Below, one piece after another: positions 30,214 to 63,081 of a DNA stretch of 64,000 nt (its first letter is position 1; each line of letters begins with the position of its first letter). Both the position numbers and the translations under genes were made by a program. Location: assembly GCA_002011035.2 (NCBI GenBank), contig MTLY02000003.1, positions 512,001 to 576,000 on the forward strand, written 5' to 3'. This DNA comes from Candidatus Hecatella orcuttiae. GTDB taxonomy: Archaea > Thermoproteota > Bathyarchaeia > Hecatellales > Hecatellaceae. A model generated the notes under the pieces. The model was given only the letters and a program-made list of their open reading frames with translations. It was not told the origin of the DNA and did no database searches.

Positions 30214-30219
30214 TCTGTC

Positions 30220-46294: not shown

Positions 46295-47784
46295 GGGACT
46301 AGGGCTTCCATCACACGGCTGAGAAGCTGGTTTAAAAACTGAGGATAAACTCCCGTCGCCACCGTCAAGACGGTTAACACCATCAGGGGAACTATGAAAA
46401 GGTTTGACGCCTCCTTCACCCGGCTTAGGCGGCTGGGAAGCTGTCTGAAGAGAACCCTCCGCACCGTCCACAGGGAATAGCTCAGTGTCAGGGCTGTGGC
46501 CATCACCGCGGCCACGGCTAAGACAACCCTCACAGCTCCCCCCTCAACAACTCCGTGGAGGAAGAAGCCGAGAAAGATCATCCACTCGCTCTGAAAGCCG
46601 TTGAGGGGCGGAACGCCGGAGAGGCTTAGGAAGCCTACCACCATGGCCACGGCTGTGTAGGGCATTTTGGAGGCTAAACCCCCCAGCTGCCTGATGCTTC
46701 TCGTCCCAGCCTGCCGCGTGAGGACTCCGGAGATCATGAAGAGAGCCGCCTTACTGGTCGCATGGCTGAAGTAGAGGAAGATGGCGCCCACCAGCCCTAG
46801 GGCTGAGGAGGACGCAAGGCCGAAAAGCAGGTAGCCCATCTGGCTGATGCTGGAGTAGGCCAGAAGCCTTTTGATGTCGTCTTGAGCCAAGGCCATGAGC
46901 GCTCCGTAGACCATGGTCACCAAGGCCATGGCCGCCAGCCCCGGGCTGAACTCTAGGATGGTCTGGGGGAAGGCGGTGAAGACAATTCGGAGAATGGCGT
47001 AGCCGCCTATGCCGCTTGTGGTCGCGGAGAGGAGGGCGGTGATGGGCGTCGGCGCCTCGACGTAGGTGTCCGGAAGCCACGCGTGGAAGGGGAAGATGGC
47101 AAGCTTCACCATCAGCCCCACCAAGAGAGCTGCGACGATAAGCCTCGCCGCCGTGGAGCCCACAGGCTGCCCCTGGGCGGAGGCTTCCTCGATAGCGAAC
47201 AGGCTGAAGCTTCCGTAGGCGGCCCCGGTGGCCAATATGCCTAGGAGGAACAGGAGGGCTCCCATGTGGGTGTAGATGAAATACCGGAAGGCTACGCGTT
47301 CTCTGTCTCCGGTTCCCCAGCCGTGGACTAGAGCCCAGGAAGGCAGAAGCATCAGCTCGAAGAAGAGGTAGAATTCGATGAGGTCTGAAGCTAGGACGCT
47401 GCCGAGCATTCCCGCGGTGTAGAGCAGATACAGCCCATAGTAGAGGGGCATGTTCTGTTCCCCGTCCATGTAGCGGATGGAGTAGGGGGCTACGATGCTG
47501 GCCAGCAGGGCTATGGTTAAAGCCATGGTAACCCCCAATCCGTCGGCGTGGAAGCCGAAGGTCAACCCCAGCGAAGGGGCCCAAGGGACTTGAAACACGT
47601 AAGCCTCCACCGTGCCGGTGAAGATGCGGGTAGCCAAGGTTAGAAGGAGGGCGGAAATGTAGGCTGTCACGGCGAAAGCCGCCCACCCGGCTTGTTTACC
47701 CATGCGCTTGGGCAGCAGGGCTAGAAGAGGTGAGACCAGCAGAGGCAGAAACACCGACTGGATGAGAAGCTGTTCAGGGCCCAT
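46291..47784 (-). CDS. NuoM/MrpD-like antiporter subunit
   Basis: FFELMLLP, KLAIFPFHAWLPD..VEAP, DIKRLLAYSSISQMG, GFQSE. Confidence 0.9.
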   Translation of the reverse strand: MGPEQLLIQSVFLPLLVSPLLALLPKRMGKQAGWAAFAVTAYISALLLTLATRIFTGTVEAYVFQVPWAPSLGLTFGFHADGLGVTMALTIALLASIVAPYSIRYMDGEQNMPLYYGLYLLYTAGMLGSVLASDLIEFYLFFELMLLPSWALVHGWGTGDRERVAFRYFIYTHMGALLFLLGILATGAAYGSFSLFAIEEASAQGQPVGSTAARLIVAALLVGLMVKLAIFPFHAWLPDTYVEAPTPITALLSATTSGIGGYAILRIVFTAFPQTILEFSPGLAAMALVTMVYGALMALAQDDIKRLLAYSSISQMGYLLFGLASSSALGLVGAIFLYFSHATSKAALFMISGVLTRQAGTRSIRQLGGLASKMPYTAVAMVVGFLSLSGVPPLNGFQSEWMIFLGFFLHGVVEGGAVRVVLAVAAVMATALTLSYSLWTVRRVLFRQLPSRLSRVKEASNLFIVPLMVLTVLTVATGVYPQFLNQLLSRVMEALVP

Positions 47785-47790
47785 GGCTGT

Positions 47791-49860
47791 TCACCCTCCT
47801 AAGCCAAGCCAGACTAGGAGAACTATCAGAAGCGTCAGGCCTCCCATCAAGCCTACCGCGTAGTCGTTGAAGACTCCTGTGTGGGTTTTTCTGAGGCGGC
47901 TGTAGAGGGTGGTAACCCCTGAGGCCACGAGGCTGCTGAACCTGAGTAAACCGTGGAACTCCAGAACCCTGTGGGCTCGGTCGCTGAGCTTGAGGGCGGG
48001 GTCTACAAAAACCCGGTAGTAGGCTTGGTTTATGTACCATCTTCTGAGAAGGAAGACCTGAAGAGCCTTAAGTTCAGGCCGCCTTTCCACCCAAGCTTTC
48101 ACGTTCCACCTCCCCGCTACGTAGGCGTAGTAGGCAGGGATACCGCCCAAAGCCAGCATGAGGGTGGAGGTCAAGAGAACCAGCCACTCCCCCAGCGGAG
48201 AATGAGCCTCCATGGCTTCACCTCCCTCTAAGTGGGCGAGGGTTGAGAGAGAGGGGGAGAACATGGAAAGGAAACCCTCCAGCAGTAGGGGTGCAAGGGC
48301 TCCGATGGCCACGGTTATCAGGGCCAAGGCTAGGTATGGAATCCACATGAGGGGCGGAGCTTCATGGACATGGTGGCCCAGCTTTTCAGCCTTCTGAAGA
48401 TGGGCGCTCTTGCCTCCGAGGAAAACCAAGCCTACGACCCTTAGGCTGTAGAAGAAGGTTAACCCCACCGTCAGGGCTGCCAGAGTGTAGAGGAAGGGAG
48501 CTTGGGCGCTGGCTTGGAAGGCCTCCACCACAGACTTGAGGATTCCCTCCTTGCTCCAGAAGCCGCTGAGGGGAGGAACCCCGGCGAGGGCTAGGGCTCC
48601 GATGAACATGCTCAGGAAGGAGAAGGGCATAAGCCTCCTAAGCCCACCCATGTCGTCCATGAACCGGGACTCGCAGGCATGGGAGACGGAGCCGGAGGAA
48701 AGGAAGAGGGTGGCCTTAAACAGGGCGTGGCTGACTAGGTGGAAAAGAGCCGCAGCGAAGGCGGCTACCAAGGCGTCCCCTGTCAGGAATCCTGCTATGC
48801 CCAAGGCCAGCATCATGTAGCCTATCTGGCTGACGGTGGAGTAGGCCCATACCTTCTTGATCTCCCGGGAAACCACCGCTTGGGTTGCGGCTACAAAGGC
48901 GGTCAGAGCCCCTGCCCAAGCTACCGCTTGGAAGAAGACGATGAGGCTGGGCAGACCGGAGTGCATGGCTGAAAAGAATATGGGGAAAACCCTCGCCACC
49001 AAGTAAACTCCAGCCTTAACCATGGTGGCCGCGTGGATGAGGGCGCTGACCGAAGCCGGCCCGGCCATGGCGTCGGGAAGCCACTCCATGAGGGGAAGCT
49101 GCGCCGACTTACCCAAGGGCCCGCCGAGGAGAAAAAGGGCCGCAGGGATCAGCAGCCCCATTTCAGCCAGGCTTCGAGCCCACGCTAGGTTTCCTTGAAG
49201 CTCGAGGAAGCTGAAGGTTCCAGCCTGAGAGTAGATGAGGAAGATGGCGACTAGGAGGAAGATGTCTCCCACCTTGGTGGTGAGGAAGGCCTTCATGCCG
49301 CAGTGGGAGGGCGGATACTCCTCCGCTCCTTCACCGACCCACCTGGTTTTCCTGTCCTCAGGGCTGTCCCTGTGCCAGAACCCTATGAGGGCGTAGCTGC
49401 ACAGGCCTACGCCCTCCCAGCCGATGAAGAGGAGGAGAAGGTTATCGGCTAGGACGAGGAGGACCATGTTGCCGATGAAGAGGTTCATGAAAAACCAGTA
49501 CCTTGTAAGCGCCGGGTCCCCCCGCATGTAGCCGAGGCTGTAGACCATGATGAGGAGGCCTATCCAAGCTGCCACGTTGGCCATGAGGACGCTTAAGGGG
49601 TCCACCAGCATCCCTGCTTTAACCTGAACTCCCGCCACCCTGATCCACTCCACTGAAAGAGGGTAAAAGCCGGCGGAAGCCTCACCCTTCAACACTTGAG
49701 GATACCCGAGGAACATCAGAAAGGCCATGAAGGCTCCTAGGCCGGAGAAACCCACGGCGGCGTAGTCCCTGACCCGGGGGTGAATCCTAGCCAAGGCCGG
49801 GGTGAGAAGGGCTCCTAGGATGGGGAAGACCCAGCTAAGCCAAGGCGTATACTCCAACAT
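47791..49860 (-). CDS. NuoL/MrpA-like antiporter subunit
   Basis: WEGVGLCSYALIGFW, KSAQLPL..WLPDAMAGP, SALIHAATMVKAG, HALFKA, GFWSKE; long C-terminal lateral helix. Confidence 0.92.
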   Translation of the reverse strand: MLEYTPWLSWVFPILGALLTPALARIHPRVRDYAAVGFSGLGAFMAFLMFLGYPQVLKGEASAGFYPLSVEWIRVAGVQVKAGMLVDPLSVLMANVAAWIGLLIMVYSLGYMRGDPALTRYWFFMNLFIGNMVLLVLADNLLLLFIGWEGVGLCSYALIGFWHRDSPEDRKTRWVGEGAEEYPPSHCGMKAFLTTKVGDIFLLVAIFLIYSQAGTFSFLELQGNLAWARSLAEMGLLIPAALFLLGGPLGKSAQLPLMEWLPDAMAGPASVSALIHAATMVKAGVYLVARVFPIFFSAMHSGLPSLIVFFQAVAWAGALTAFVAATQAVVSREIKKVWAYSTVSQIGYMMLALGIAGFLTGDALVAAFAAALFHLVSHALFKATLFLSSGSVSHACESRFMDDMGGLRRLMPFSFLSMFIGALALAGVPPLSGFWSKEGILKSVVEAFQASAQAPFLYTLAALTVGLTFFYSLRVVGLVFLGGKSAHLQKAEKLGHHVHEAPPLMWIPYLALALITVAIGALAPLLLEGFLSMFSPSLSTLAHLEGGEAMEAHSPLGEWLVLLTSTLMLALGGIPAYYAYVAGRWNVKAWVERRPELKALQVFLLRRWYINQAYYRVFVDPALKLSDRAHRVLEFHGLLRFSSLVASGVTTLYSRLRKTHTGVFNDYAVGLMGGLTLLIVLLVWLGLGG

Positions 49861-49866
49861 TCAGCT

Positions 49867-51405
49867 CTAACCTCCCAACACCTGCTCAACGTAGTTGCCC
49901 GGATGTAAAGCCGCCTGCACAGCCGGCTCCACGAAGTTCAAGCCAAGCTGGGGGAACACTCCGAAAACAACAGCCGCCACCATCAGAGCGAGCATGGGAA
50001 CCAGCATCAGAGGGCCGGCTTCCCGAAGGTTTTCATGCTCCCGCCTAAGCTGGCCTAGGAAGACGCTGCGGAAGGCGTTCACTATGTAGGCTACGGCGAT
50101 AACGCTCATAACGGCTCCTAGGAGCACGTAGAAGATGAAAAGCGGCTGCCCTGTTTCAATGGCCGCCTTGAAGATGATCCACTTGCTGACAAAGCCGTTG
50201 AGGGGGGGAACCCCGGCTATTCCAAAGCCTCCGACGGCGAAGGCGCCCATGGTGAGGGGCATCTTCCTCCCCAGCCCGCCGAGCTTGGACATGTCCCTAA
50301 CTCCAGTTTGGTGGACGATGACCCCTGCGGCCAAGAAGAGAAGAGACTTCAAAACCGCGTGGTTGAGGAGATGGTACAGGCCCCCGGTGAGGCCTAGAAG
50401 GCTTCCGATCCCCACGCCGAAAAGGATGTAGCCGATGTTCATCACGCTGGAGAAGGCGAGCAGGCGTTTGATGTCGGTTTGGGCTAAAGCCATAAACCCT
50501 GAGAAAACCATGGTTACCACGCCTAGGGTGGAGAGGAAAATCAACAGCGCTTCTCCCGGCTGAACATGGTAGGCGGTGAACAGAACCCTGACCATGGCGT
50601 AGAGGCCGACCTTGATGTAGACTCCCGAAAGAATGGCGCTGATGGGGCTGGGAGCCGCGGGGTGAGCGTCGGGAAGCCAGGTGTGCATGGGGACAACGGC
50701 TGCCTTAACTCCGAAGCCCCAGATGAGAAGCGCCACGGCCAAGGGAGCCACTAAGGCGTTTCCCTCCAAGGTTCCAGGGAGAAACCTTTCCCCCGCGAGC
50801 CTCTGAGCTATGTCCGCCATGTTGAGGGTTCCTAGGGCGCCGTAGAGGAGGGCGATGCCGAGGAGAACCATGGAGGTAGCCGTAGCCCCCATGATGCAGT
50901 ATTTTATGCCGGCTTCAAGGCCTTCGTGGTCGAGGTTGAAGGCTACGAGGGCGTAGGTGGCGACGCTGGACAGCTCCAAGAAGACGAAGAGGTTGAAAAG
51001 GTCCCCGGTTAGGGTTATTCCCATCATGCCGCTTAGGATCAGCATGAGAAGCGCGTAGTAGTAGGTCTGCCCTCCCTCATGTTTCATGTATTCGATGGAG
51101 TAGAGAGCCGCCAGCATGGTGATCCCGGCTACCACCGCGGCTACAAACCCGTTGAGGGAATCCACAGCTAAAACGATGCCGAAGGGCGGCCTCCACCCAG
51201 CCATCTGGTGGGTGACAACTTGCCCGTCCATCACCGCGAAAAGGAGGGAGACCGTTAAGCTGAAGGTCACAGCCGTGGTTGCGAAGGCTGACCAAGCCTG
51301 AAGCCTAACTGGGACGAAGGAGCCCACGGCGACGAGGATAAATCCCGCAGCCAACGGGAGGATGATGGAGAACACTGGAAGCCATTCTAGGGGGATCACC
51401 GTCAA
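49867..51405 (-). CDS. mnhD: MnhD/MbhH antiporter subunit
   Basis: GWRPPFGI, TGDLFNLFVFLE, WLPDAHPAAP, GFVSKW. Confidence 0.92.
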   Translation of the reverse strand: MTVIPLEWLPVFSIILPLAAGFILVAVGSFVPVRLQAWSAFATTAVTFSLTVSLLFAVMDGQVVTHQMAGWRPPFGIVLAVDSLNGFVAAVVAGITMLAALYSIEYMKHEGGQTYYYALLMLILSGMMGITLTGDLFNLFVFLELSSVATYALVAFNLDHEGLEAGIKYCIMGATATSMVLLGIALLYGALGTLNMADIAQRLAGERFLPGTLEGNALVAPLAVALLIWGFGVKAAVVPMHTWLPDAHPAAPSPISAILSGVYIKVGLYAMVRVLFTAYHVQPGEALLIFLSTLGVVTMVFSGFMALAQTDIKRLLAFSSVMNIGYILFGVGIGSLLGLTGGLYHLLNHAVLKSLLFLAAGVIVHQTGVRDMSKLGGLGRKMPLTMGAFAVGGFGIAGVPPLNGFVSKWIIFKAAIETGQPLFIFYVLLGAVMSVIAVAYIVNAFRSVFLGQLRREHENLREAGPLMLVPMLALMVAAVVFGVFPQLGLNFVEPAVQAALHPGNYVEQVLGG

Positions 51406-51761
51406 CCGTGAAGCCTCCTAATTTTTCTCATGTCTAAGGTTCCGAAACGCTGGTAGATTTTCACAGCCAAGGCCAATGCGAAGGCGGCGATGCTCATGTT
51501 GATGACGATGGCGGTTAAGACCAGAGCTTGAGGCAGAGGGTCTACCGCCGCGGCTGTGAAGGCTGAGAAGTGTTCGATGCGTTCTTCGGTGAGGACGGGA
51601 GATATACCCCCAGCCCTGTAGCCTAGGCTGATGAAGAAGAGGTTCACTCCGTCGGCTAGGACGCCCATTCCCAAGATTATTTTGATGAGGTTTCTTTTTC
51701 GGAGGATGCAGTACAAGCCAAGCAGAATGATTACCATGGACACAGCGTAGGGAAAGTTCAC
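51402..51761 (-). CDS. mnhC: MnhC/MbhG subunit
   Basis: NLIKII, DPLPQALVLTAIVI. Confidence 0.93.
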   Translation of the reverse strand: MNFPYAVSMVIILLGLYCILRKRNLIKIILGMGVLADGVNLFFISLGYRAGGISPVLTEERIEHFSAFTAAAVDPLPQALVLTAIVINMSIAAFALALAVKIYQRFGTLDMRKIRRLHG

Positions 51762-51765
51762 CTCA

Positions 51766-52200
51766 TCACTTCCTCGCGAAGCAGTAGAACACTATCAGAA
51801 ACGCGGCGGCTACGTGGATGGCTTCCCCGATGTCGTAGAGCAGGAGGTTCCCTGAGCTGAAAAACTCGCTGGGAACCCCGAACAGGTAGACAGCCTCGTT
51901 TCTGAAGGGCCAGGAGAAAAACCAGAAGCCGAAGGTCAGCCCCAAAAGGCCCACCAGCAGAATCATCGCCGCGCCCAAGCCTCTGAGGCTGTCTCCAAAC
52001 CGGAAACCAAGCTTGCCCTCCATGAAGTCTAAGCCGAAGGCTAGGAGGAGAAGGAGGAAGGTGCTGCCCAGCATGACGCCGCCTTGGAAGCCTCCTCCCG
52101 GCGTGAGATGCCCGTGGAGGGCTACGGAGACCCCTACCAGCAGCATGGCCGGGGCGATAAGCCTGACCACGGTTTTAACGATGATGCTCATTCCTCTCAC
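51766..52200 (-). CDS. mnhB: MnhB/MbhF subunit
   Basis: HGHLTPGGGFQGG. Confidence 0.92.
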   Translation of the reverse strand: MRGMSIIVKTVVRLIAPAMLLVGVSVALHGHLTPGGGFQGGVMLGSTFLLLLLAFGLDFMEGKLGFRFGDSLRGLGAAMILLVGLLGLTFGFWFFSWPFRNEAVYLFGVPSEFFSSGNLLLYDIGEAIHVAAAFLIVFYCFARK

Positions 52201-52465
52201 TTTTTACCATCCTCCTAAAGAGGGTGACAACCCCCAGCACAGCCGCGAAGAGCACAGCTGTCTCCCCTAGAGTGTCGTAGCCTCGGTACTCCCAGATGAT
52301 AGCCTGCACGCTGTTCCAGGCTTTGACCTCCTCAAGACTCCGCTCCACATAATACTGACCCACCGGAAAGGGATGCGCGCCGAAGGGGGGAAGATAGAAG
52401 GCTGCGATCAGGATCAGAGTGAAGCTCACCGCTGCCAGAAAAGAAAACTCCACAAGCCTCCTCAA
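52175..52465 (-). CDS. MbhE-like subunit
   Basis: NSVQAIIWEYRGYDTLGE..VLF. Confidence 0.88.
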   Translation of the reverse strand: MRRLVEFSFLAAVSFTLILIAAFYLPPFGAHPFPVGQYYVERSLEEVKAWNSVQAIIWEYRGYDTLGETAVLFAAVLGVVTLFRRMVKSERNEHHR

Positions 52466-52467
52466 AC

Positions 52468-52722
52468 CTACTCCTCCTCCATTCTCGAAGTCCTCATCAG
52501 CACAGCCACGAAAAGAGCGGTGAGAATGCCGGCTCCGATGGTAACCTGGGTTAGGGCGATGTCCGGGGCTTTCAGCATGAAGAACAGGAAAGCCAGCAGA
52601 ATGCTTTGAACAGCCGCCACGACAACCGCGTAAAGCAAGTCTTTGAGCTCGATGAAAACCAGTATGAGGAAAACCATGACGATGAGGAGAAAGTTGAAGA
52701 CTACGCCCGGCGGCTCAAACAT
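52468..52722 (-). CDS. MbhD/DUF4040 subunit
   Basis: KDLLYAV, APDIALTQVTIGAG. Confidence 0.88.
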   Translation of the reverse strand: MFEPPGVVFNFLLIVMVFLILVFIELKDLLYAVVVAAVQSILLAFLFFMLKAPDIALTQVTIGAGILTALFVAVLMRTSRMEEE

Positions 52723-53059
52723 CTTTCTCCCCCTCCTTCAGCATGTCGCACACCGACCTAGGCCAGAGGGGCACCCTGCTTTTATGGGCGGCTCTCAGAA
52801 TCGCATGGGACCCAACCGGGGAAGTGAAAAAAATAACCGCGGCGATGATGAGGACTTTCAGGCTGGAGATGGGGTTTGAGGCTCCGAGGAAGAGGGCGAG
52901 GCCGAAGACGGTTACCACGGCTCCCCCGATCACGCTCACCGTGGCCGCGTGCATCCGAGTGTAGGCGTCGGGAAGCCTGAGAAGCCCCAGGGCTCCTACG
53001 AAGGAGGCGAAGATCCCCAAGGAGATTATTCCGCATCCCAGGGCTTGAAGCCAGGTCAG
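52715..53059 (-). CDS. mnhG: MnhG/MbhC subunit
   Basis: GLLRLPDAYTRMHA, TSPVGSHAI. The first TM helix begins at CTG 53059, overlapping the mnhF TGA. Confidence 0.9.
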   Translation of the reverse strand: MTWLQALGCGIISLGIFASFVGALGLLRLPDAYTRMHAATVSVIGGAVVTVFGLALFLGASNPISSLKVLIIAAVIFFTSPVGSHAILRAAHKSRVPLWPRSVCDMLKEGEKDV

Positions 53060-53331
53060 TCTCCCAGCCCCCTTTTTTCAAGGTACTTGGAAATCGCCAG
53101 CGTCCCGATGAAGGAAAGGAAGACGAGGAGAAGAGCCACGTCGAGCATGATGGCTTCCTCGTGGTAGACGCCCAGCAAAACCATGAGGGCCACAATCATG
53201 CTTACAGCCGTGTCCCCGGCTAAGACCCGGTCGGGGGCGGTGGGGCCTCGGAGAACCCTGTAGAAGACGAGGCAGAGGCTTACCACCAGGCCGAACAGAG
53301 CTGCCAGCAGGAAGGTTTGAAAGGCGTCCAT
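53056..53331 (-). CDS. mnhF: MnhF/MbhB subunit
   Basis: RVLRGPTAPDRVLAGD, LDVAL, FIGTLAISKYL; ATG 53331 overlaps the mnhE stop. Confidence 0.92.
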   Translation of the reverse strand: MDAFQTFLLAALFGLVVSLCLVFYRVLRGPTAPDRVLAGDTAVSMIVALMVLLGVYHEEAIMLDVALLLVFLSFIGTLAISKYLEKRGLGD

Positions 53332-53867
53332 CAACTGAAAAACCTCTTGGTGTATTCCTCGAATTTTGAGCTGATTTCCCTCCGGCAGACTTGGGGGTCG
53401 AGGCTTAGGACGTCGATCCAGTGGACGTAGTAGCATTTCTCCGCCTCGTCCACCTCCACCGTCACTGTTCCCGGAGTATTGGTGATGGAGTTTGCCACGC
53501 AGACTATCCCGCAGTCAGACTGGGTGGTGTAGGGAACCTTAACTATTCCCGGCCGAATGGGTAGGCTGGGGCTGAGTATCCGCTTGATGACGCTGAAGTG
53601 CGCCTTCACCTCCGCGTAAAACCAGTAGTAGACAAAGTAGACAACGGCCCAAAACCACTTGGCAGGGTCAACCTTATCGCGGACGCCGCCGGAAACCATC
53701 AGGCGGGAGGTGAAAAAAGCCACCAGCAAGCTGGAGAGGGCGCCTACCAGCAGCTCATCCGCAGCGAACACGCCCACCAAGGCGCACCACAATCCGAAGA
53801 GGACGATGAAGACGAGGAAAAGACGGGTTAAGCCTTGGAGTCTCCCAGCCCCATAGGTTCCCTTCAA
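53331..53867 (-). CDS. mnhE: MnhE/MbhA subunit
   Basis: PGIVKVP, ANSITNTPGT, YVHWI. Confidence 0.92.
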   Translation of the reverse strand: MKGTYGAGRLQGLTRLFLVFIVLFGLWCALVGVFAADELLVGALSSLLVAFFTSRLMVSGGVRDKVDPAKWFWAVVYFVYYWFYAEVKAHFSVIKRILSPSLPIRPGIVKVPYTTQSDCGIVCVANSITNTPGTVTVEVDEAEKCYYVHWIDVLSLDPQVCRREISSKFEEYTKRFFS

Positions 53868-54055
53868 CAGTCACCCCAGCCACGCGGCGAATTTGGACTT
53901 TAATAGCTAGTTCAAGGTAAATTAAAATTTGCCCTTATAACTCTGATGGACTAAAGAGTTCGACCGGTTTGTTGTCATAAAAATTTATATTATTATCTGT
54001 CATTCGCTGATGGGAACTTCCCTAAAAGAATAAACCCGGAAAAATCACGCTGAAG

Positions 54056-54071
54056 TTTTTTATAAAAAAAA
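54056..54071 (-). terminator. T-tract terminator after the fwd operon
   Basis: TTTTTTATAAAAAAAA immediately after the fwdC-mch stop; reads as a T-run on either strand. Confidence 0.55.
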
Positions 54072-54073
54072 GT

Positions 54074-55879
54074 TTAGGGTGTTTTTAGGAGAGCGAGGGA
54101 GCGTTTGAGGATGGGGGCGCTGATCTTGCCGGCCGTGAAGGTGTTTCCTGTCTTCACGTTGTGGAGGGTGATCTTGGCGGGCGCGAAGAGGCCGGGGTCT
54201 ATCTTGTAGAAGTCGCCTCCCGCCTCCTTGAAAGTCTCATAGAAGGGTTTCCCGTAGTCCCTGGAAGCGATGGAGGGAGCCTCGTCGATGATGTTGATGA
54301 TTTCGTCGTCGGTTTTGCAGGCTACCTCATAGTAGACGTCGCCGCCGTAGAGGATCATGTCGTTGGTGATGCCCATGGCCACCTCGCTCTTGGGGTGCAC
54401 GGGGGCTATGGGAGCTGAGCCTTTCCCCTTTAGGATTTTGTTGGGGTTGAAGCCCAGTTCGGTGAGTTTGTGGATGCCTGTCTCCACCACCCTCCCGGCT
54501 ATCTGAACTGAGCCCACGAGGCTGGAGGTGGAGGCTATGAGCACGTACAAGCCCTCCAAGGGGACGTTGCAAGTTTCAGCCATCAGCTTCAACGCTGACT
54601 CCGTGGGAAGGCTGTCGGCTTCCAGCAGGATCACAGCAACCTTGGCTTCATCCTTGTAACAGAGCTTCTGGTAGAGCTTTTTAGGCTGGAGGGAAAGCGC
54701 CCTCGCCGGGCCGGAGCCCATGGCGAAATAGTCCTCCGTCTTGATGGCCCATCCTGCAAACTGAGCCCCCAGCGTGGCTACGGCCGGGTGGCCTGTGGTC
54801 GTCTCGTAGAGAGTCGGCAGCTCCAAGTCTTCACCGTATTTCTCCCTGCCGATGGATATCTCAGCCAAGTTGCCTAGGCAAATGAGGGTCACGATCTTCC
54901 CCGCTTCTTCGCTGCCTTTGGCTTTAAGGCCTACGTCCACCACCACGGCTCCTGAACTGTGCTTGGTAACTTGGACTCCCAGCCTCTCCGCTTCGTTGAT
55001 GAGCTTCTCCACCAAGGGAACGGTCAGCTGGTTGACGCTGACTCCTTCGGGGAAGACTTCCCCTTCAGGGTTGAGGCGGCGGTTTCGACATCGTGAAACG
55101 AAGAGCTTCCCGCTGCCTCCTTCGAGGCTGTCCCCGGTGTAGACGTAGAAGGACGCGGGAATCTTCTCAGCTCCCACCTTGGCTTTGTCCTTTATCTCCG
55201 TGTAGGTGAAGCTGGGAAGAATCTCAGCGACCTCTCCCTGAACGATGATGCGCCCTCCTTTCATGGCAGCGCCGACGCGGGGGCCGCAGTTTCCCTTGAC
55301 GAGGATAACTCCGTCCTGCATCCTGTGGCCTAAAAACTGGCCTGCATTCCCATCCACGGAGATGACTCCGCCTCTCATCCAGAGACCCGCATGGGTGCCG
55401 GTGTTGCCGTGGACGATGATGGAGCCGTTGAGCATGCCTTCTTGAACCCCTCGGTAGGGGGCTGCCAAGTAGTCGCCGGTGTTACCGAAGACTTCAATCT
55501 GGCCGCCGGCCATCATGGAGCCAGTCCAAGAGGCAGCGTTGCCCTTCACCGTTATGGAGCCGCCGGCCATCTCCTCCCCCAGATAGAAGCCGACGTTTCC
55601 CTCCACCACAAGCTTGCCGCCGTCCATTCCCTTCCCCACATACCTGAACTTGGAAAGGTCCCCTTTCAGGGTGACATCGCATTGGCTGGAGTCGGCGGCA
55701 GGCTCACCTTGGACTTTCACATCGAAGAACTCTCCCAGCTTAGCCGACCGTCCGCCTTCTAGGAGAGGAAGCTCCTCAATTTCTCCGCTGGATTTTCCGG
55801 CGAAGGCTTTCGGCGACAAGGCCTCCGCGAACACGGGAACTTTTGGGGCTTTTTTCAGTTGAAGTTTGATCTCCACCAA
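54074..55879 (-). CDS. Fusion of formylmethanofuran dehydrogenase subunit C (N-terminal) and methenyl-H4MPT cyclohydrolase Mch (C-terminal)
   Basis: About aa 1-270: GxxMxxG beta-helix repeats, YRG...GM, EILPSF (FwdC). From about aa 280: VSVNQL, VDVG, QFAGW, MGSGPARAL, LEAD.LP, TSSLVGSVQIAGRVVETGIHK, MGITNDMILYGG, DFYKIDPGLFAPA (Mch). No stop codon between the halves. Confidence 0.93.
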   Translation of the reverse strand: MVEIKLQLKKAPKVPVFAEALSPKAFAGKSSGEIEELPLLEGGRSAKLGEFFDVKVQGEPAADSSQCDVTLKGDLSKFRYVGKGMDGGKLVVEGNVGFYLGEEMAGGSITVKGNAASWTGSMMAGGQIEVFGNTGDYLAAPYRGVQEGMLNGSIIVHGNTGTHAGLWMRGGVISVDGNAGQFLGHRMQDGVILVKGNCGPRVGAAMKGGRIIVQGEVAEILPSFTYTEIKDKAKVGAEKIPASFYVYTGDSLEGGSGKLFVSRCRNRRLNPEGEVFPEGVSVNQLTVPLVEKLINEAERLGVQVTKHSSGAVVVDVGLKAKGSEEAGKIVTLICLGNLAEISIGREKYGEDLELPTLYETTTGHPAVATLGAQFAGWAIKTEDYFAMGSGPARALSLQPKKLYQKLCYKDEAKVAVILLEADSLPTESALKLMAETCNVPLEGLYVLIASTSSLVGSVQIAGRVVETGIHKLTELGFNPNKILKGKGSAPIAPVHPKSEVAMGITNDMILYGGDVYYEVACKTDDEIINIIDEAPSIASRDYGKPFYETFKEAGGDFYKIDPGLFAPAKITLHNVKTGNTFTAGKISAPILKRSLALLKTP

Positions 55880-55885
55880 AACTTT

Positions 55886-57568
55886 TCACCCCGCCTTCAA
55901 AACCTGCGGTCGAGCTAGGGCGTCCTCAGGGATGATGAAGTTGTCGAACTCCACGGTGTAGTATTCCCTGAATTTGGCTTTCAAATTCGCCGCGGCCAGC
56001 CGGAGGACATCTTCCTCGATGTCAGGCTTAACCCAGAAAGTCTTCCCCCGAGGCGCAGTCTTGATCTCGCCTTTCTCCACCACCACTTGGCCCTCTTTCA
56101 CAACCCAGACCGCGTTTCCGAAGGCCTTCCTCACTTTCTTGTAGTCTTTGGACGGGTCCACCTCCCGGGGGTTAAGAGGATAGACGGCGACGTCGGCGTC
56201 AGCTCCCACACCTAGATGGCCTTTGTTTTTAAGGCCCAGCGACCGGGCTGTTCCCGCCCGGGTTACGACGGCTATCTCCGAGAAGCTGTACTCCCTGTCC
56301 AAGGAGCTGAGGTTAGACCTCTTCCTAGCCATCCGGGGGATTTTGGAGAGAACCCTCTCCCTAGCCTTCCGGCTCATCAGCCAAGCTATTACCTTCGGAT
56401 AGGCTGTGAAGGGCCCTGCGTTGGGGTGGTCGGTGGTCAGGAATACCCTCCAAGGGTCTCGGACGGCCAAGGCCAGCTCCAAGCCCACGGTCCACTGGAT
56501 GGCGTTGACGTAGTTGGACCTCTTGTAGAAGTAGGGGACAACCCCTGCGCTAGTCTCCACCTCCACATCGGAGTTAGTCCACTTGTTGCCGGTGAGCTGG
56601 TAGAGCTGGAACTGGAAGGGTCCATCCGCAGTCATGGTGGTGGCGTTTCCGAAGACAAGCTGACCTAGGTCGATGCTGACATGGCCGTGTCTGTTGACGT
56701 AGTTGGCTATCTCCACGCCTTCGGAGCTCATGGAAAGCCAGTCTCGGCCTCCGTAGCCTTCAAACTGCACGTGGGTGAGGTGGATGACAGGCTTCTCCCC
56801 GGCTAGGTCCCTCACGCAATCCATGGTCTCGATGGTGGTCTCGTAGTTGCCGGGGCGGCCTAGGTTGTTGGGATGAAGGTGAATAGGGTGAGGAAGGTTC
56901 AGCATCTTACTGATCTTACAGAGGCTTCGAACTATCTCCCTAGGTGTAATGCCGAAATTTGGAACTTCCTCATCCAACCCCAGTACGTTTCCACCCCAGT
57001 TCCAAGCCTCCAGCCCTCCGGGGTTGACGATTTTTATGGCATAGCCCTTGACAGCTTCCAGCATCCAAGCCACGTAGCCGGCTGCCTCCTCGATTCTCCC
57101 CGCCTTCAAATACTCCAGCAAGATGACGTCGTTGCCGAAGAGGGGGAAGCAAGCCTTATCCAAGATGGGTATATCGTCCAGCTCATCGTGGGTATGCCTT
57201 GCCTTCAACATGGGGGTAGCCGGCTCGAACACCGTGGTGTAGCCCATCTTGGCATAACGGTAGCCGGTGGTGAAGACCGAGGGCACGGTGCTCCCCACCC
57301 CAGACCGGGTGGTAGGCGTCTTAGCCTCCGGGTCCCTGAAGTGGTCCTCAGGCCTCATCAGCCGCCCCGCGTTCACCTTAGACCCAGCGATGTGGGAGTG
57401 AAGGTCCACTCCCCCAGGCATGACCATAAGGTTGGAGGCGTCGATAACCCGGGCTCCGCTGCTCACCGACTCCACCACTTTGCCGTCCCTGATGGCTATG
57501 TCCATCTTCTGGCCGTCGATCCCGTTGAGGGGGTCGAAGACGATGCCGTTTTTGATCAGAAGCTCCAC
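55886..57568 (-). CDS. fwdA: Formylmethanofuran dehydrogenase subunit A
   Basis: DLHSHIAGSKVNAGR..RPED, KIVNPGG, HLHPNNLG, TTDHPNAGPF. Confidence 0.96.
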   Translation of the reverse strand: MELLIKNGIVFDPLNGIDGQKMDIAIRDGKVVESVSSGARVIDASNLMVMPGGVDLHSHIAGSKVNAGRLMRPEDHFRDPEAKTPTTRSGVGSTVPSVFTTGYRYAKMGYTTVFEPATPMLKARHTHDELDDIPILDKACFPLFGNDVILLEYLKAGRIEEAAGYVAWMLEAVKGYAIKIVNPGGLEAWNWGGNVLGLDEEVPNFGITPREIVRSLCKISKMLNLPHPIHLHPNNLGRPGNYETTIETMDCVRDLAGEKPVIHLTHVQFEGYGGRDWLSMSSEGVEIANYVNRHGHVSIDLGQLVFGNATTMTADGPFQFQLYQLTGNKWTNSDVEVETSAGVVPYFYKRSNYVNAIQWTVGLELALAVRDPWRVFLTTDHPNAGPFTAYPKVIAWLMSRKARERVLSKIPRMARKRSNLSSLDREYSFSEIAVVTRAGTARSLGLKNKGHLGVGADADVAVYPLNPREVDPSKDYKKVRKAFGNAVWVVKEGQVVVEKGEIKTAPRGKTFWVKPDIEEDVLRLAAANLKAKFREYYTVEFDNFIIPEDALARPQVLKAG

Positions 57569-58870
57569 TCAAGCCACCTCCTTGAGGCTTCTAACCTTGT
57601 GAAGTATATTTTCCAACACCTCCACATCTGGAAGGCAGTTGGGCGGAGGCTCCACGAATTTTCTGGTCTTCAAAGCCACTCCATCCATCCGGTAGACTGT
57701 TCCTCCATATTCGATGCCGTTGAAGGCCGCGGGAATCCGCACATCCGCCAAAAGGCTTGTGGCCGTGAGGGTTGGGTCCACCACGGCGACGGGTATGTTG
57801 GCTAGGTTTTTCACAGCTGCCCAAGGCATGTGGGAAGCAGGGTCGGAGGCCACCACCAGCGCCGCGTCTACTTCCCCCCGAACCAGCAGGTCGGCGGCGG
57901 AGGTTTCTCCCGGGTTAAACCGGGGATAGCCGTGGCTGAAATCCACGGCGAAAGGATAGCCCGTCTGCCATAAGGCAACCTTGTTGGCTCCTGTGACGTT
58001 GTAGTGGCCTCGCATGGGCAGCATGAGGAATTTGGTTTTGAGGTTGAGGTCCCTCACCAAGGAGATGGCGGCGGCGATGTTTTCGTTTTTTGCACTGGAC
58101 TGGGTTAGGCCGAGGCCGAAGAAAAGCATCCCAAACTCGCAGCTCACCATCATTTCAGCCAGCTCCTCGATTTTTTCCACCGGAACCCCGGCCACGGCTT
58201 CCGTTTCAAACTCCATGTCCCTCACAGCCATCCTCAGGGCTGAGAGCAACTCGTAGTCCTTTCCGGGGTCAATCTGAAGGAACAGGTCCGCGGTCTTGGA
58301 GGTAACGGTCTTCCGTACGTCCACCACCACGATTTTCCGGTCTTTTCTCTGGCTTCTGAAAAGACCCTTGGTGAAGGCGGTATAACGGGTTGTATGCCTG
58401 ATGTGGGCTTGGGAGGGATTGCAGCCCCAGTAGATGATGAGGTCCGCCCTATGCCTAGCCTTTCCCAAGGTGCCTGTGGGCTCCCCCACGTCCTGTATGG
58501 CCTCCAAGCCGACTCCATGGCAGACGGTAGCAGTGTTGTCGAGGACCCCTCCCACCTCCTCTGTCAATTCTATGCCGACCTTGATGGCCTCGCAGCTGGT
58601 GTTACTCCACCCGTAGAGAAGCGGATACTTGGCCTCAGCCAGGATTCTAGCAGCCTTGTCCAAAGCTTCCTCAAGGCCGACTTTCCGAAAGCCTCCGTCC
58701 GCCCTCATGAGGGGATCCGGGTTTCGTTCTTCTTGAGAATGTAGAAATTTCTCGGTGGCTAGGGCGCAGGCGTATTTTACGCCTGTGATTTTGTTGTCCT
58801 CCACGGAAACTTCCAGGTCGTCGCAGACGCAGCCGCAAAAACTGCATAAGACATTCTTAACCACTACCAT
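57569..58870 (-). CDS. fwdB: Formylmethanofuran dehydrogenase subunit B (Mo/W-pterin, Cys ligand)
   Basis: CSFCGCVCDDL, ATVCHG, WGCNP..AH.RH, PMRGHYNV, GTVYRMD. Confidence 0.96.
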   Translation of the reverse strand: MVVVKNVLCSFCGCVCDDLEVSVEDNKITGVKYACALATEKFLHSQEERNPDPLMRADGGFRKVGLEEALDKAARILAEAKYPLLYGWSNTSCEAIKVGIELTEEVGGVLDNTATVCHGVGLEAIQDVGEPTGTLGKARHRADLIIYWGCNPSQAHIRHTTRYTAFTKGLFRSQRKDRKIVVVDVRKTVTSKTADLFLQIDPGKDYELLSALRMAVRDMEFETEAVAGVPVEKIEELAEMMVSCEFGMLFFGLGLTQSSAKNENIAAAISLVRDLNLKTKFLMLPMRGHYNVTGANKVALWQTGYPFAVDFSHGYPRFNPGETSAADLLVRGEVDAALVVASDPASHMPWAAVKNLANIPVAVVDPTLTATSLLADVRIPAAFNGIEYGGTVYRMDGVALKTRKFVEPPPNCLPDVEVLENILHKVRSLKEVA

Positions 58871-59259
58871 TTTTCATTTCCCCCTCTAGCTTCAGCCATG
58901 AGTTCCTCCAGGTCAGGAACCTTCTCCCCCGGAGCAGGTTCAACTTCAACCTCCAGACCCTTATAGCTGGGAGTGCCTGTCCCTCCGGTTTCCGGCCCGA
59001 CGAGGCGGTTGGCCCAAGGGCCCACGGGAATGAAAACCAAACCCGGGCGGGGTTCCCTAGATTTAGCCGCCTTAACGGTTATGCTCCCGTAGGGTGACGT
59101 AACCTTCACGGTCTGCCCCGGCTCGATCTTGAGGGCGGCCATGTCGCTTTCATCCATCTCGCACACGGCCACGCTGTCCTTGTACTTGGCGGAGAGTTTT
59201 CCATGTTCCTTCCCCTGAGCTTGAGCTATGGAGGTCCCGGTTATCAAAACTGCTTTCAA
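58864..59259 (-). CDS. fwdD: Formylmethanofuran dehydrogenase subunit D
   Basis: LITGTSIAQ, FIPVGPWAN, TGGTGTPSYKG; TTG 59259 preferred as start. Confidence 0.93.
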   Translation of the reverse strand: MKAVLITGTSIAQAQGKEHGKLSAKYKDSVAVCEMDESDMAALKIEPGQTVKVTSPYGSITVKAAKSREPRPGLVFIPVGPWANRLVGPETGGTGTPSYKGLEVEVEPAPGEKVPDLEELMAEARGGNEKW

Positions 59260-59321
59260 CTCTCTTCCACCTTTTCTGTTATTCTTCTTGCAGGAATTTA
59301 AGTTTCCGTTTAAACCCCCCA

Positions 59322-60164
59322 TCAAAGCTTTTGAGGCTTCTCCATGAGCTTCCGCTTGGCCATGAGGCTTCCGTCCTTGTGGTGCGGCTTCCTCAGGAGA
59401 ACATCAGGGGCCTTCTCGATCTCCCTCGCCTCGTCAGCCATCTTGGAGGCCGCCCTAACCATTTCGTGGGCCGCTGCCACCAAGGGAATGTAGCGTTCTC
59501 TTTCCTGAACCACAAAGCAGCCTTCCACATCTAACTCCGCCACCTTCCTCAGCATCTCGTAGGCGGCTAGGGCTTTCACTTTGGCGTAGGGGTTCTGAAA
59601 CTCCGCTGCCTCCACGGCCTTTTCCTTGTTCACCACTATCTTGGGGAGCTCCGGCTTCTCTCCCTTCTTCACAGCCTCCACCACCCTATCCAGCTCAGTG
59701 TACAGGAGGTGGAAGCTGCCGGTTATGGCCAGAACCTTGATGATGTCAGCGTTGAACACCGCCATCTCCACGGGATCGAGGAACTCCCTCCTAGCCCCAA
59801 TCATGGCGTCCCCCTCCACGATGATGTAGCCGAAGCCTTTCTCCCCCAGTTCTTTGGCTATCTTCTTGGATGGACCGTCGGAGACCACGATGGTAGGCAC
59901 CCCGGCTCCAGCCATCTTCTCCCGAACCTTGGCGGGACCCGGCAGGGCAGCGTTGGGGCTGGCCACCACCACGAAGGCAGGTTTGAAGCTTAAGATGCTG
60001 TCAGCCACTTCCCCCGCTTGCTCCGGCCCCAGTTTGGCTCCGGAGCTTACCACTCTCACGTCTATGTCTTCCCTGTCAGCTCTTTCGTCCAGAAGCATTT
60101 CGAGAAGAGGGGCGGATGCGATGTTTCCTAATTTGACGAATCCGATCTTCACAACCACAACCAT
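59322..60164 (-). CDS. mtd: F420-dependent methylene-H4MPT dehydrogenase
   Basis: KLGNI, LLDERADREDI, SGAKL, SPNAALPGP, DAMIGARREFLDP.EMA.FN, NPYAK.KA. Confidence 0.97.
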   Translation of the reverse strand: MVVVVKIGFVKLGNIASAPLLEMLLDERADREDIDVRVVSSGAKLGPEQAGEVADSILSFKPAFVVVASPNAALPGPAKVREKMAGAGVPTIVVSDGPSKKIAKELGEKGFGYIIVEGDAMIGARREFLDPVEMAVFNADIIKVLAITGSFHLLYTELDRVVEAVKKGEKPELPKIVVNKEKAVEAAEFQNPYAKVKALAAYEMLRKVAELDVEGCFVVQERERYIPLVAAAHEMVRAASKMADEAREIEKAPDVLLRKPHHKDGSLMAKRKLMEKPQKL

Positions 60165-60354
60165 CACCTTTAGGGAAAAAATAAGGCGAAAAGCCTCTTT
60201 AAACTTTCCATTACCTTCCGGTTATCCGATTTAAGTAAAATTTCATCATAAAAATACCAATCTCCCGTAAATAAGCGAGCACAAGGGCTCTGTGGAAAAT
60301 CTTTTAAACTTTCCGCGGCTAAAAAAGAGAATAAACAAAAAGAGAGGAGGAGCG

Positions 60355-61260
60355 ATGTCCAAACAAGTGGAAATTGAAGACACCTTCGCCGAAGCTTTCC
60401 CCATGTGGGTGAGCAGGTTTCTGATAACGGCGGAAAACGAGAAATGGGCCTTAACCTCCGCTAGGGCAGCCACAGGCTTCGCCGTCTCCATAATCATGTC
60501 CCCTGCTGAAGCTGGGGTTGAAAAGACGGTGAGCGGGGATGAGACCCCTGACGGAAGACCTGGGGCTATCGTTCATATCTACCACAGCAGCGGCCACGGC
60601 CTCAAAGACCAGTTGCTGAGGAGGATCGGCCAATGCGTCTTAACTTGTCCCACCACCGCTGCCTTTGACGCCTTAGGCAGCCAAGCGGTGAAGAGGCTGA
60701 AGATAGGAGCCAGCATCCGATACTTTGGAGACGGCTTCCAGAAAAAGGACACCGTGAAGGACCGAACGGTCTGGCGGATCCCCGTCATGGAGGGAGAATT
60801 CCTCATCGAAAGCCGGTTTGGAGTGAAACTGGGTGTAGCCGGAGGCAACTTCCTTGTGCTGGCGGAAAACGCCAAAGCCGGACTTGAGGCAGCTGAAAGG
60901 GCGGTGGAAGCCGTGGTGGGTAAAGTGGACGGAGTGGTCATGAGCTTCCCAGGCGGCGTCTGCCGGTCGGGCTCTAAGGTCGGCTCCATGAAGTATAAGC
61001 TTCCAGCCTCCACCAACCACCTCTACTGCCCTGTCCTCCGGGATGTGGTCTCCGACACGCTGATCCCTGAAGGCGTCAAATGCGTCTACGAGCTCATCTT
61101 CAACGGCATCAACTTGGCTTCAGTCAAGGAAGCTATGAAGAAAGGTATCGAAGCCTCCGCAGCCGTTCCAGGGGTGGTGAAGATTTCAGCCGCTAACTTC
61201 GGCGGCAAACTTGGCCCCTACAAGATATACCTGAAAAAACTGGGATTATCCCTTCCGTGA
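60355..61260 (+). CDS. ftr: Formylmethanofuran:H4MPT formyltransferase
   Basis: IEDTFAEAF, TPDGRPG, RIGQCVLTCPTT, FPGGVCRSGSK, ANFGGKLG; ATG 60355 after GAGGAGG. Confidence 0.97.
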   Translation: MSKQVEIEDTFAEAFPMWVSRFLITAENEKWALTSARAATGFAVSIIMSPAEAGVEKTVSGDETPDGRPGAIVHIYHSSGHGLKDQLLRRIGQCVLTCPTTAAFDALGSQAVKRLKIGASIRYFGDGFQKKDTVKDRTVWRIPVMEGEFLIESRFGVKLGVAGGNFLVLAENAKAGLEAAERAVEAVVGKVDGVVMSFPGGVCRSGSKVGSMKYKLPASTNHLYCPVLRDVVSDTLIPEGVKCVYELIFNGINLASVKEAMKKGIEASAAVPGVVKISAANFGGKLGPYKIYLKKLGLSLP

Positions 61261-61372
61261 GGCTGAGGATGTAGGGTGACAAAATAATTAACCCTACACC
61301 TAAAACAAAGCGTGTATATCAAACGGGCTGGAGGATGTTGCTGCAGTCTAGACTTCTGTTGGCATCTATCCT

Positions 61373-62107
61373 TCAGCGGCTTCTGAATTTCTGAAGCCTT
61401 TCCAGCAGCTCTTTGTCGCCTTCGTAGTCTCCAGCGCAAGTTGCGATGATGCCGTCCACAACCCCCTCAAGCTTCGCTGCGAATTCTTCAGCGCGGTCCA
61501 TGGTGGCGGTGACAGGCCACCCGATCATTTTAACCATCTCCGCATTTTTGGGAGTCCCCACCAAGAAGTAGGAGTAGATAGGCTTGTTCAAGCGTTTGCA
61601 CTCTTCAGCTATGACCTTCAACTGGTCGAAGGATTTATCGTCAAGCCTCATGAAGAAGACAAAGTCCCAGTCTCCCCTCACACGGGCGAGGGTACTCTCC
61701 ATGCTGGCGGCCAGCCGTGCACTGAGCAAACAGCCCAGCTTCAGGTTTTTGAGACGCACCGTCTTCTTGAGGAAATCCCGAGCCTCCTCCGAGTTTTTCA
61801 ACATCTTGATGGGTTCACCGTATTTTGGAATATCGCCCATGGTAAGCACCAAGCCGTCCAGGGGCACAGCGTCCGCCGCCAGGGCTAAACCGCCCACCTC
61901 AACAGGGCCCTTATAGTGCAGGATGAAGATGGGTATGACTATCTTTTCCGGGTATCTGGTCTTGAGCAGGCAGCTTATGGCGGTGCCGCTGGGCGCAGGC
62001 ATTCCTGCAGCGCTGTCGGTGACGTTCCAACCGTCAACTAGGTTCTTGGTTTCTTCGGCAAGTTTCAAAAACTTACGGGTTGGAACAAACTCGTGCAGTA
62101 TTTTCAA
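61373..62107 (-). CDS. Short methylenetetrahydrofolate reductase (MetF)-like TIM-barrel flavoprotein
   Basis: E..P N-terminus, WNVTDSAAG, VIP and LVLTMGD.PKYG match the FAD-binding half of MetF; the C-terminal half is divergent. Confidence 0.65.
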   Translation of the reverse strand: MKILHEFVPTRKFLKLAEETKNLVDGWNVTDSAAGMPAPSGTAISCLLKTRYPEKIVIPIFILHYKGPVEVGGLALAADAVPLDGLVLTMGDIPKYGEPIKMLKNSEEARDFLKKTVRLKNLKLGCLLSARLAASMESTLARVRGDWDFVFFMRLDDKSFDQLKVIAEECKRLNKPIYSYFLVGTPKNAEMVKMIGWPVTATMDRAEEFAAKLEGVVDGIIATCAGDYEGDKELLERLQKFRSR

Positions 62108-62293: not shown

Positions 62294-63079
62294 TTATGGG
62301 TTGAGCTTTTTCAAGCTTTCTTCAAGGTTTTTTATGGCCTCGACAGCAGGGCACGAGGGTGAATAGTCGAGAGGAGCCTTTCCCACCCTGTCCGCCTCAG
62401 CCAATTTCAAGTCATAGGGGATCATTTCCAGCAAAGGAATGCCGCATGCGGAGAGGGTTTGGCGGATGAAATCCTCCTCCTCTTTGCTCCTTAACTTGTT
62501 CCCCACGCCATAGAGTTTGGGTATCCCCAAGTCTTGGGCCAAGTGTTCTATCCGTTTGGCTGTTTCCACCGCTTGGCCTCCCGGCTCCACCACCACCAAG
62601 AGCGCTTCCACCCCGCGGACGGTGCCTCTGCCCAAGTGCTCCAAGCCGGCTTCCATGTCCATGACCACCGCTTCTCCCCTTTCGAGAAGCAGGTTTCTAA
62701 GAAGAGCGCGGAGGAGAGCGTTAGCCGGGCACATGCAGCCTGTGCCTCCCAGCTTAACCGTTCCCATGACCAGAAGCTGAACTCCGTCAGGGGCTGGGAC
62801 GCCGAACTTTTCCGCTAGGTCGCTGACTTTGGGGTTAAGCTTGTAGACGCCTGTGCTCGCGTCGAAGGCCGTCCTCTCCCGGATGAGTTCCGAGTTTTCG
62901 GACAGAGGCACGATCTTAGCGGCTGCCTCCGCTGGGAGCCCTAGAGTGTAGGCCAGGTTCATAGCCGGGTCGGCGTCCACGGCTAACACCCTATAGCCCT
63001 CCCTCGCCAGCAGTCGGCTTAGGGTTCCGGCCACTGTGGTCTTGCCGACTCCTCCCTTACCGGCCACGGCTACCTTCAT
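62294..63079 (-). CDS. cooC: CooC/AcsF Ni-insertion ATPase
   Basis: GKGGVGKTT, DADP, GCMCP, DMEAGLEHLGRG. Confidence 0.93.
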   Translation of the reverse strand: MKVAVAGKGGVGKTTVAGTLSRLLAREGYRVLAVDADPAMNLAYTLGLPAEAAAKIVPLSENSELIRERTAFDASTGVYKLNPKVSDLAEKFGVPAPDGVQLLVMGTVKLGGTGCMCPANALLRALLRNLLLERGEAVVMDMEAGLEHLGRGTVRGVEALLVVVEPGGQAVETAKRIEHLAQDLGIPKLYGVGNKLRSKEEEDFIRQTLSACGIPLLEMIPYDLKLAEADRVGKAPLDYSPSCPAVEAIKNLEESLKKLNP

Positions 63080-63081
63080 GG

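Follow-up and report, generated by a model that had tools for sequence, protein, structure and literature searches.

The question raised by the 64,000-nucleotide stretch of Candidatus Hecatella orcuttiae analysed here (contig MTLY02000003.1, positions 512,001 to 576,000; hereafter the window) is why a subunit of formylmethanofuran dehydrogenase (Fwd) and the whole of methenyl-tetrahydromethanopterin cyclohydrolase (Mch) should be encoded as one protein. Fwd, the formylmethanofuran:tetrahydromethanopterin formyltransferase (Ftr) and Mch catalyse steps 1, 2 and 3, respectively, of the tetrahydromethanopterin (H4MPT) C1 pathway. To our knowledge, the archaeal forms of these three are treated as separate soluble enzymes, and the only physical coupling known to us in this branch is the bacterial Fhc complex. 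The explanation favoured here, which taken as a whole is probably correct, is that of a genuine, inherited fusion by which each Fwd complex carries Mch on a covalent tether, in a 1:1 ratio. Two well-known enzymes are combined here in a domain architecture that is new, simple in origin and narrowly distributed. The gene and its three parts are located in the window as follows.

54074..55879, minus strand: fwdC::mch fusion gene, 601 codons plus stop, with a TTG start at 55879 and the stop at 54074-54076
55088..55879, minus strand: FwdC domain, residues 1-264, the beta-helix scaffold subunit of formylmethanofuran dehydrogenase
55043..55087, minus strand: junction, residues 265-279 (RNRRLNPEGEVFPEG), in which a remodelled C-terminal tail of FwdC is followed by a join of 2-4 residues
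54077..55042, minus strand: Mch domain, residues 280-601, a complete methenyl-H4MPT cyclohydrolase lacking the initiator Met only

The open reading frame listing and its translation give a single frame of 601 aa, running on the minus strand from 55879 down to 54077. The first-pass annotation, in which the strand was not stated, had described one 601-aa open reading frame with a complete FwdC and a complete Mch, the latter starting near 55042, and neither a stop nor an ATG at the junction. All of this was borne out: both profiles are matched over their full length and above their cut-offs, the quoted linker corresponds to residues 265-279, residue 280 (the start of VSVN...) falls at base 55042, and the boundary holds no stop and no ATG, GTG or TTG. 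For the first half, the FwdC equivalog of NCBIfam (TIGR03122) scored 252.2 bits against a cut-off of 130.65, with residues 4-261 covering positions 1-260 of the 260 in the profile; the Pfam domain GXGXG was found at residues 93-231 of the fusion protein. Chain 5t5i_C was matched over residues 3-262 with an E-value of 4.6e-57, and Foldseek comparison of the predicted model with this chain gave a TM-score of 0.93 and an rmsd of 1.6 for the FwdC half. The beta-hairpin typical of FwdC is retained in the model, with strands at 224-235 and 238-250 and no helices there, and the last strand of this half spans residues 258-264.

The second half is equally complete. Pfam MCH is matched at residues 281-594 (E-value 3.9e-117), and the NCBIfam Mch equivalog TIGR03120 scored 379.7 bits against a cut-off of 228.8, residues 281-595 covering positions 1-312 of 313. 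Residues 280-597 align with residues 2-316 of the free Mch of M. kandleri (1qlm_A; E-value 1.2e-93), and in the predicted model this half superposes on 1qlm with a TM-score of 0.91 (Foldseek). Residue E466 aligns with the Glu that is changed to Gln between 4gvq and 4gvr, and it is invariant in 15 of 15 fusions; we take it to be catalytic, presumably the counterpart of the active-site Glu186 of the A. fulgidus enzyme. The Mch domain thus appears, from its sequence, to be catalytically competent as well as complete. The likeness to the free enzymes (1QLM, 4GVQ, 4GVR, 4FIO) extends from end to end, with the Glu kept as E466, whereas the known enzymes are stand-alone proteins of about 316-330 aa, present as 3 or 6 chains in the PDB, and here the N-terminus is occupied by FwdC. 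An AlphaFold2 model built from the 15 fusions reached a mean pLDDT of 83.3. In the Foldseek search, no solved chain was found to cover both halves.

Each function is present in one copy. A single MCH match was found in the genome, and the one further GXGXG protein it encodes falls short of the FwdC cut-off (53 bits, where 130.65 are required); with a single Mch and no other bona fide FwdC, the fusion is left to supply both functions. The genome is a metagenome-assembled genome (MAG), estimated to be 97% complete with 4.25% contamination.

The fusion is real, and two checks that the first-pass annotation had put forward, read support across the junction and a search for further proteins of FwdC plus Mch architecture, both speak for it. 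Full-length fusions account for 15 of the 120 proteins listed, each representing a cluster at 90% identity; they are 599-608 aa long, share 58-93% identity with the query and come from NCBI, JGI, ENA and Logan, and a singleton chimera is thereby refuted. Nine public runs from eight studies carry the stretch or part of it, none of them listed as RNA. In three of them, each from a different study, contigs span the junction without a single difference: X1 over the whole stretch, X5 over 54285-55280 and X7 over 54862-55180. A flag as a possible source of this DNA attaches to X1 and X5 but not to X7. Deeper contigs in X1 and X5 (word depth 1150 and 251) match only 54195-54215 and 54332-54376, conserved stretches of Mch, at 90-95% identity; these belong to another, more abundant Mch-bearing organism in the same samples.

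The distribution of the fusion is confined to one family. An uninterrupted, full-span fusion was found in 5 of 401 genomes of the class and two more are cut by contig ends, all seven in family f1. This family comprises 14 genomes, 12 of them with a match, of which seven are fused (genera g1, g3, g6 and g7) and five are split (genera g2, g4 and g5). The genomes of g4 and g5 have fwdC and mch on different contigs. In two g2 genomes (G005, loci L042 and L038; G017, loci L043 and L035) the genes are neighbours on opposite strands and convergent; the ancestral fwdC-mch pair is inverted in this genus, not fused. No fusion outside f1 was found in 201 genomes of the phylum, and none longer than 1052 aa was found, the latter being weak evidence. 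An exhaustive phmmer search of 1.84 billion representatives returned, among the best 150, one full-span fusion (P0007, one cluster at 50% identity) and one fragment (P0172). The homologues are labelled Candidatus Bathyarchaeia, Hecatellales or Hecatellaceae.

The gene order in relatives suggests how the fusion came about. In 52 further genomes of the 401 (47 full-span, 5 partial), fwdC and mch are collinear and in one frame with 1-3 stops between them, and each of the 24 such loci that were read shows a FwdC stop, a spacer of 0-15 codons and then a Mch start. Among 20 sampled genomes with only a Mch match, 14 carry fwdC immediately before mch, on the same strand but off-frame, and one of the remaining six ends at a contig edge. 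The gene immediately preceding fwdC is fwdA in 29 of 29 loci of relatives and in all 14 of the off-frame adjacent loci. Outside the class, direct adjacency of fwdC and mch was found in 2 of 27 genomes with matches in the phylum sample. In the tree of the Mch domain, all 19 fused rows form one clade (UFboot 100, SH-aLRT 99, recovered in 100% of 200 bootstrap trees), and in that of the FwdC domain all 21 fused rows do so (SH-aLRT 100). Since both trees hold a single fused clade, the fusion arose once, in a Bathyarchaeia family resembling Hecatellales; on the sequences compared, an operon with the conserved order fwdA-fwdC-mch lost the stop codon of fwdC, and the fused gene was inherited vertically from then on. 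This simplest origin, a stop lost in a pair that is adjacent and co-directional in most Bathyarchaeia, was missed by the first-pass annotation. Programmed read-through in the split genomes was also considered, in view of the 52 genomes with both genes in one frame, and rejected: the 14 of 20 sampled other genomes are adjacent off-frame, and same-frame pairs are, by a rough estimate, not enriched. The split mch genes moreover have start codons of their own, several with GGAG-like sites.

The junction itself is under constraint. Tails of split FwdC end in N-P-H-L-x-x-Y-E-K-F-L, followed by a stop, and in the fused clade the tail reads N-x-x-L-N-P-x-G-E-(V/I)-F-P-(D/E)-(P/G)-x and passes directly into the SVN motif of Mch. 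The FwdC tail is therefore nearly whole, with 2-4 residues between its natural end and residue 2 of Mch. Seven residues, R263, N266, L269, N270, P271, E274 and F276, are the same in all 15 fusions of an alignment whose columns are on average 70% identical; R263 stands just before the junction and the other six are inside it. Both N270 and P271 are absent from the split forms, and the tail has thus been remodelled. The mean majority fraction of the junction is 0.76, compared with 0.62-0.79 in sub-regions of both domains, and is thus no lower than that of either half. Its synonymous sites differ freely between genera while the amino acids are kept, which argues that the constraint acts on the protein. 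The segment may be one whose conformation depends on a partner missing from the structural model. A Shine-Dalgarno-like GAAGGAG lies over codons 278-279 (window 55043-55049, minus strand) in the window's own genus only, being absent from the five other fused loci read; either a remnant of the former ribosome-binding site of mch or chance could account for it.

How would such a protein work? FwdC is described, in the accessible text of PMC11656701, as a beta-helix that strengthens the interface between FwdA and FwdBD and stabilises the internal cavity. In the explanation favoured here, the FwdC half would likewise clamp FwdA to FwdBD, as in formylmethanofuran dehydrogenase, and its tail would run after 2-4 residues into a complete Mch, so that each Fwd complex would carry one Mch at the C-terminal end of FwdC. 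Because this is the only FwdC and the only Mch in the genome, every Fwd complex should carry one tethered Mch, in a 1:1 ratio. Step 3 of the H4MPT C1 branch would then be placed at the enzyme of step 1. The tether would guarantee stoichiometry and proximity, and channelling would also need Ftr nearby. We infer that FwdC, though fused, remains a subunit of the Fwd complex and that the benefit is one of proximity or co-assembly.

Several points weigh against this explanation. The fusion is not essential to the pathway, since sister genera of f1 are without it. Steps 1 and 3 are not consecutive, and proximity alone therefore gives no channelling unless Ftr is near. Translation as one uncleaved chain is inferred from the sequence. 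Mch is a homotrimer, and its PDB entries hold 3 chains or multiples of 3, whereas there is one FwdC per Fwd protomer, so that two oligomeric states have to be reconciled. Finally, in two AlphaFold2 models the pLDDT falls below 50 at residues 268-275 and 269-279, and the pTM values are 0.62 and 0.54, where a rough estimate for two independent domains of such sizes is about 0.53; no fixed arrangement of the domains and no FwdC-Mch interface are predicted.

A tenable, if somewhat unlikely, alternative is that the fusion is nearly neutral and frozen: a small deletion would have removed the stop between two translationally coupled genes, and the product, performing much like the two separate proteins, would persist by descent with no gain in kinetics or assembly. 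Given the widespread adjacency and the spacers of 0-15 codons, such an origin is trivial, and the lack of a predicted interface, the unfused sister genera and the recovery of one 50%-identity cluster and one fragment among the best 150 of 1.84 billion representatives are what this alternative would lead one to expect. The pattern N..L...E.F also occurs in the tails of split FwdC, and the conservation of the junction may reflect constraints of FwdC's own. On the other hand, the fusion has been kept across four genera, at identities down to about 57%, with no reversion, and the tail was remodelled to LNPxGE(V/I)FP, with the invariant N270 and P271 that the split forms are missing.

Another explanation, put forward in the first-pass annotation, is a Fwd-Ftr-Mch metabolon with the fusion as its anchor, in which a Mch trimer would gather three Fwd protomers and Ftr would dock on them, formyl-methanofuran and formyl-H4MPT being passed on without bulk equilibration. 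This is held to be unlikely, although several observations are in keeping with it: the PDB entries of Mch, with 3 chains or multiples, fit the homotrimer; ftr is the divergent neighbour of the operon; the order fwdA-fwdC-mch is conserved across the class; and the junction is conserved and yet unplaced by AlphaFold2 in the isolated chain, as would be the case for a partner-binding segment. The natural comparison is with FhcABCD of Methylorubrum extorquens (6S6Y), the C chain of which matches the model with a TM-score of 0.86. There too an enzyme of the H4MPT pathway is attached at the C-terminal part of a FwdC-like subunit, and Mch is fixed here on the same C-terminal side where FhcC docks the Ftr homologue FhcD, as given in the available text of PMC6926001. 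According to the same source, two helices of FhcC in place of the FwdC beta-hairpin make the FhcD contacts, and in archaea methanofuran reportedly travels from Fwd to Ftr and back by diffusion (PMC6926001). The two systems differ in that the enzyme attached in Fhc is Ftr, held non-covalently through the helix-loop-helix that replaces the hairpin, whereas here it is Mch, held covalently with the hairpin retained. The helix-loop-helix for FhcD contacts is absent, and with the hairpin kept at 224-250 in the model, a Fhc-like dock for Ftr is not supported. In addition, ftr lies outside the operon and is not fused, and split sister genera exist. Fhc carries its methylofuran as a swinging arm, and its FhcB is a dead dehydrogenase that has lost the pterin and Fe-S motifs, in contrast to the FwdB encoded here, which has a full equivalog score.

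A further proposal, which is speculative and in our view rather improbable, extends beyond the fused genomes: Mch would be a structural subunit of Fwd in Bathyarchaeia, whether fused or merely encoded next to it, the junction would act as a hinge that seats Mch on FwdC/FwdA, and an (FwdABCD-Mch)3 particle, assembled through trimerisation of Mch, would recruit Ftr. If this were true, the first three steps of the archaeal Wood-Ljungdahl methyl branch would share a single machine, comparable to bacterial Fhc but made with a different enzyme.

It is very doubtful that the polypeptide does not persist, either by cleavage at the junction or by an internal start of Mch, so as to release the free trimeric enzyme. 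A segment that is invariant and predicted to be disordered would suit a processing site, and GAAGGAG stands over codons 278-279 in the window's own genus. However, none of the 6 fused loci read has a boundary start codon, and GAAGGAG is missing from the other five. The lone GTG at the boundary, in locus L008, encodes the Val of the SVN motif, and the other fused loci do not share it. No known self-cleaving motif was identified, though no search aimed at one was made. An artefact of assembly or sequencing, be it a chimeric join or an overlooked stop or frameshift, has nothing in its favour beyond the MAG status and the estimated contamination. It is already refuted by the 15 clusters, drawn from four data sources, in which this architecture recurs at 58-93% identity, by its presence in seven genomes of four genera, by the identical junction in contigs of three runs from three studies and by the congruence of the two domain trees.

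Returning to the tethered fusion, precedents exist for additions at this place and in this pathway. The 400-aa FmdC of a Mo-enzyme (9sw6_K) consists of FwdC plus about 130 extra C-terminal residues, presumably FwdD-like, and this extension implies that the C-terminus of FwdC tolerates an appended domain. The sole other multi-domain architecture of Mch among the best 150 representatives is that of the ATP-grasp_3 plus Mch proteins P0141 (636 aa) and P0175 (697 aa); Mch is C-terminal in these as well, whereas the N-terminal partner is an ATP-grasp ligase and not FwdC. Fusions of FwdB with FwdD and of FmdE, reported in the accessible text of PMC11237513, are a precedent for fusions of Fwd subunits within the pathway's own gene cluster; they join subunits of the same enzyme, whereas the partner here is a different enzyme of the pathway.

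The first-pass annotation was aware of no characterised example of a FwdC-Mch fusion, and the portion of the open literature that was searched agrees, holding no description of one; the supplementary tables of PMC11237513 and PMC9635834 lie outside that portion and may list it. The main text of PMC9635834, the paper that names Hecatellales, does not mention the fusion in the part available. In public records the fusion proteins are named Mch, hypothetical protein or FwdC partial. A pathway reconstruction that expects FwdC as a separate protein of about 270 aa could therefore count Fwd as incomplete in the fused lineage. A natural FwdC-Mch protein in four genera is also a Rosetta-stone hint that, in Bathyarchaeia, Mch associates with Fwd; most of the genomes sampled there have the two genes side by side. 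The protein offers, furthermore, a ready-made construct with which to ask whether keeping downstream enzymes close by helps to pull the endergonic fixation of CO2.

The fusion gene is the last of an operon with the order mtd-fwdD-fwdB-fwdA-fwdC::mch, in which fwdD-fwdB-fwdA-fwdC lie on one strand with intergenic gaps of 0-6 nt. The naming of ftr and mtd as neighbours in the first-pass annotation was correct, as seen from their positions below.

55886..57568, minus strand: fwdA, amidohydrolase subunit (TIGR03121, 813.6 bits), 6 nt upstream of the fusion gene
57569..58870, minus strand: fwdB, pterin subunit (TIGR03129, 565 bits against a cut-off of 327.8)
58864..59325, minus strand: fwdD (PF01568; NF042908 at 115 bits, under the cut-off of 175)
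59322..60167, minus strand: mtd, F420-dependent methylene-H4MPT dehydrogenase (PF01993, E-value 5e-123; NF002162, 409.5 bits), the first gene of the operon
60292..61260, plus strand: ftr, formylmethanofuran:H4MPT formyltransferase (PF01913 and PF02741; NF002554, 412 bits), divergent from the operon

The FwdB sequence begins with a Cys-rich motif. Compared with FwdABCDFG of Methanothermobacter wolfeii (5T5I, 5T5M, 5T61), residues 1-264 of the fusion correspond to FwdC, and the operon likewise encodes FwdA, FwdB and FwdD. The systems differ in that FwdC of M. wolfeii is a free subunit of 270 aa and here continues into Mch; in addition, no fwdE/FmdE was found in the genome, and there is no polyferredoxin gene in the fwd operon. 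A search of window positions 53000-62000 against Rfam returned no match, and a scan for promoters and terminators, run without an archaeal promoter model, gave counts not above those of shuffled sequences.

With regard to the pathway, CdhC, the acetyl-CoA synthase of CODH/ACS (carbon monoxide dehydrogenase/acetyl-CoA synthase), is encoded about 6 kb past the end of the window (G000:C3:582080-582547), which places the methyl-branch operon close to the carbonyl branch. MtrA is present in the genome, McrA was not found in it at 97% estimated completeness, and its Mer-like matches are all under the cut-off. The gene content points to an archaeal Wood-Ljungdahl pathway without Mcr. For Hecatellales, the available text of PMC9635834 describes a Wood-Ljungdahl pathway that possibly runs in either direction, with Mtr but lacking Mcr, and notes synteny between an Mrp antiporter and Fwd. 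A Mrp/Mnh-type antiporter cluster is also seen here directly downstream of the fwd operon (window 46291-53867, minus strand), with MnhE at 53331-53867 and NuoL/M/MrpD-like subunits at 46291-51405.

Elsewhere in the window, an archaellum-like or type-IV-pilus-like cluster (26619-31128 and 40664-41443, both plus strand) encodes a KaiC/ArlH-like ATPase, a FlaI-like ATPase, two FlaJ-like membrane proteins and a FlaK-like prepilin peptidase, all under the equivalog cut-offs. Beyond ftr lies an open reading frame of 244 aa (61373-62107, minus strand) with no Pfam or NCBIfam match, followed at the window end by two genes for CbiA/MinD/CooC-like P-loop ATPases (62294-63864, minus strand).

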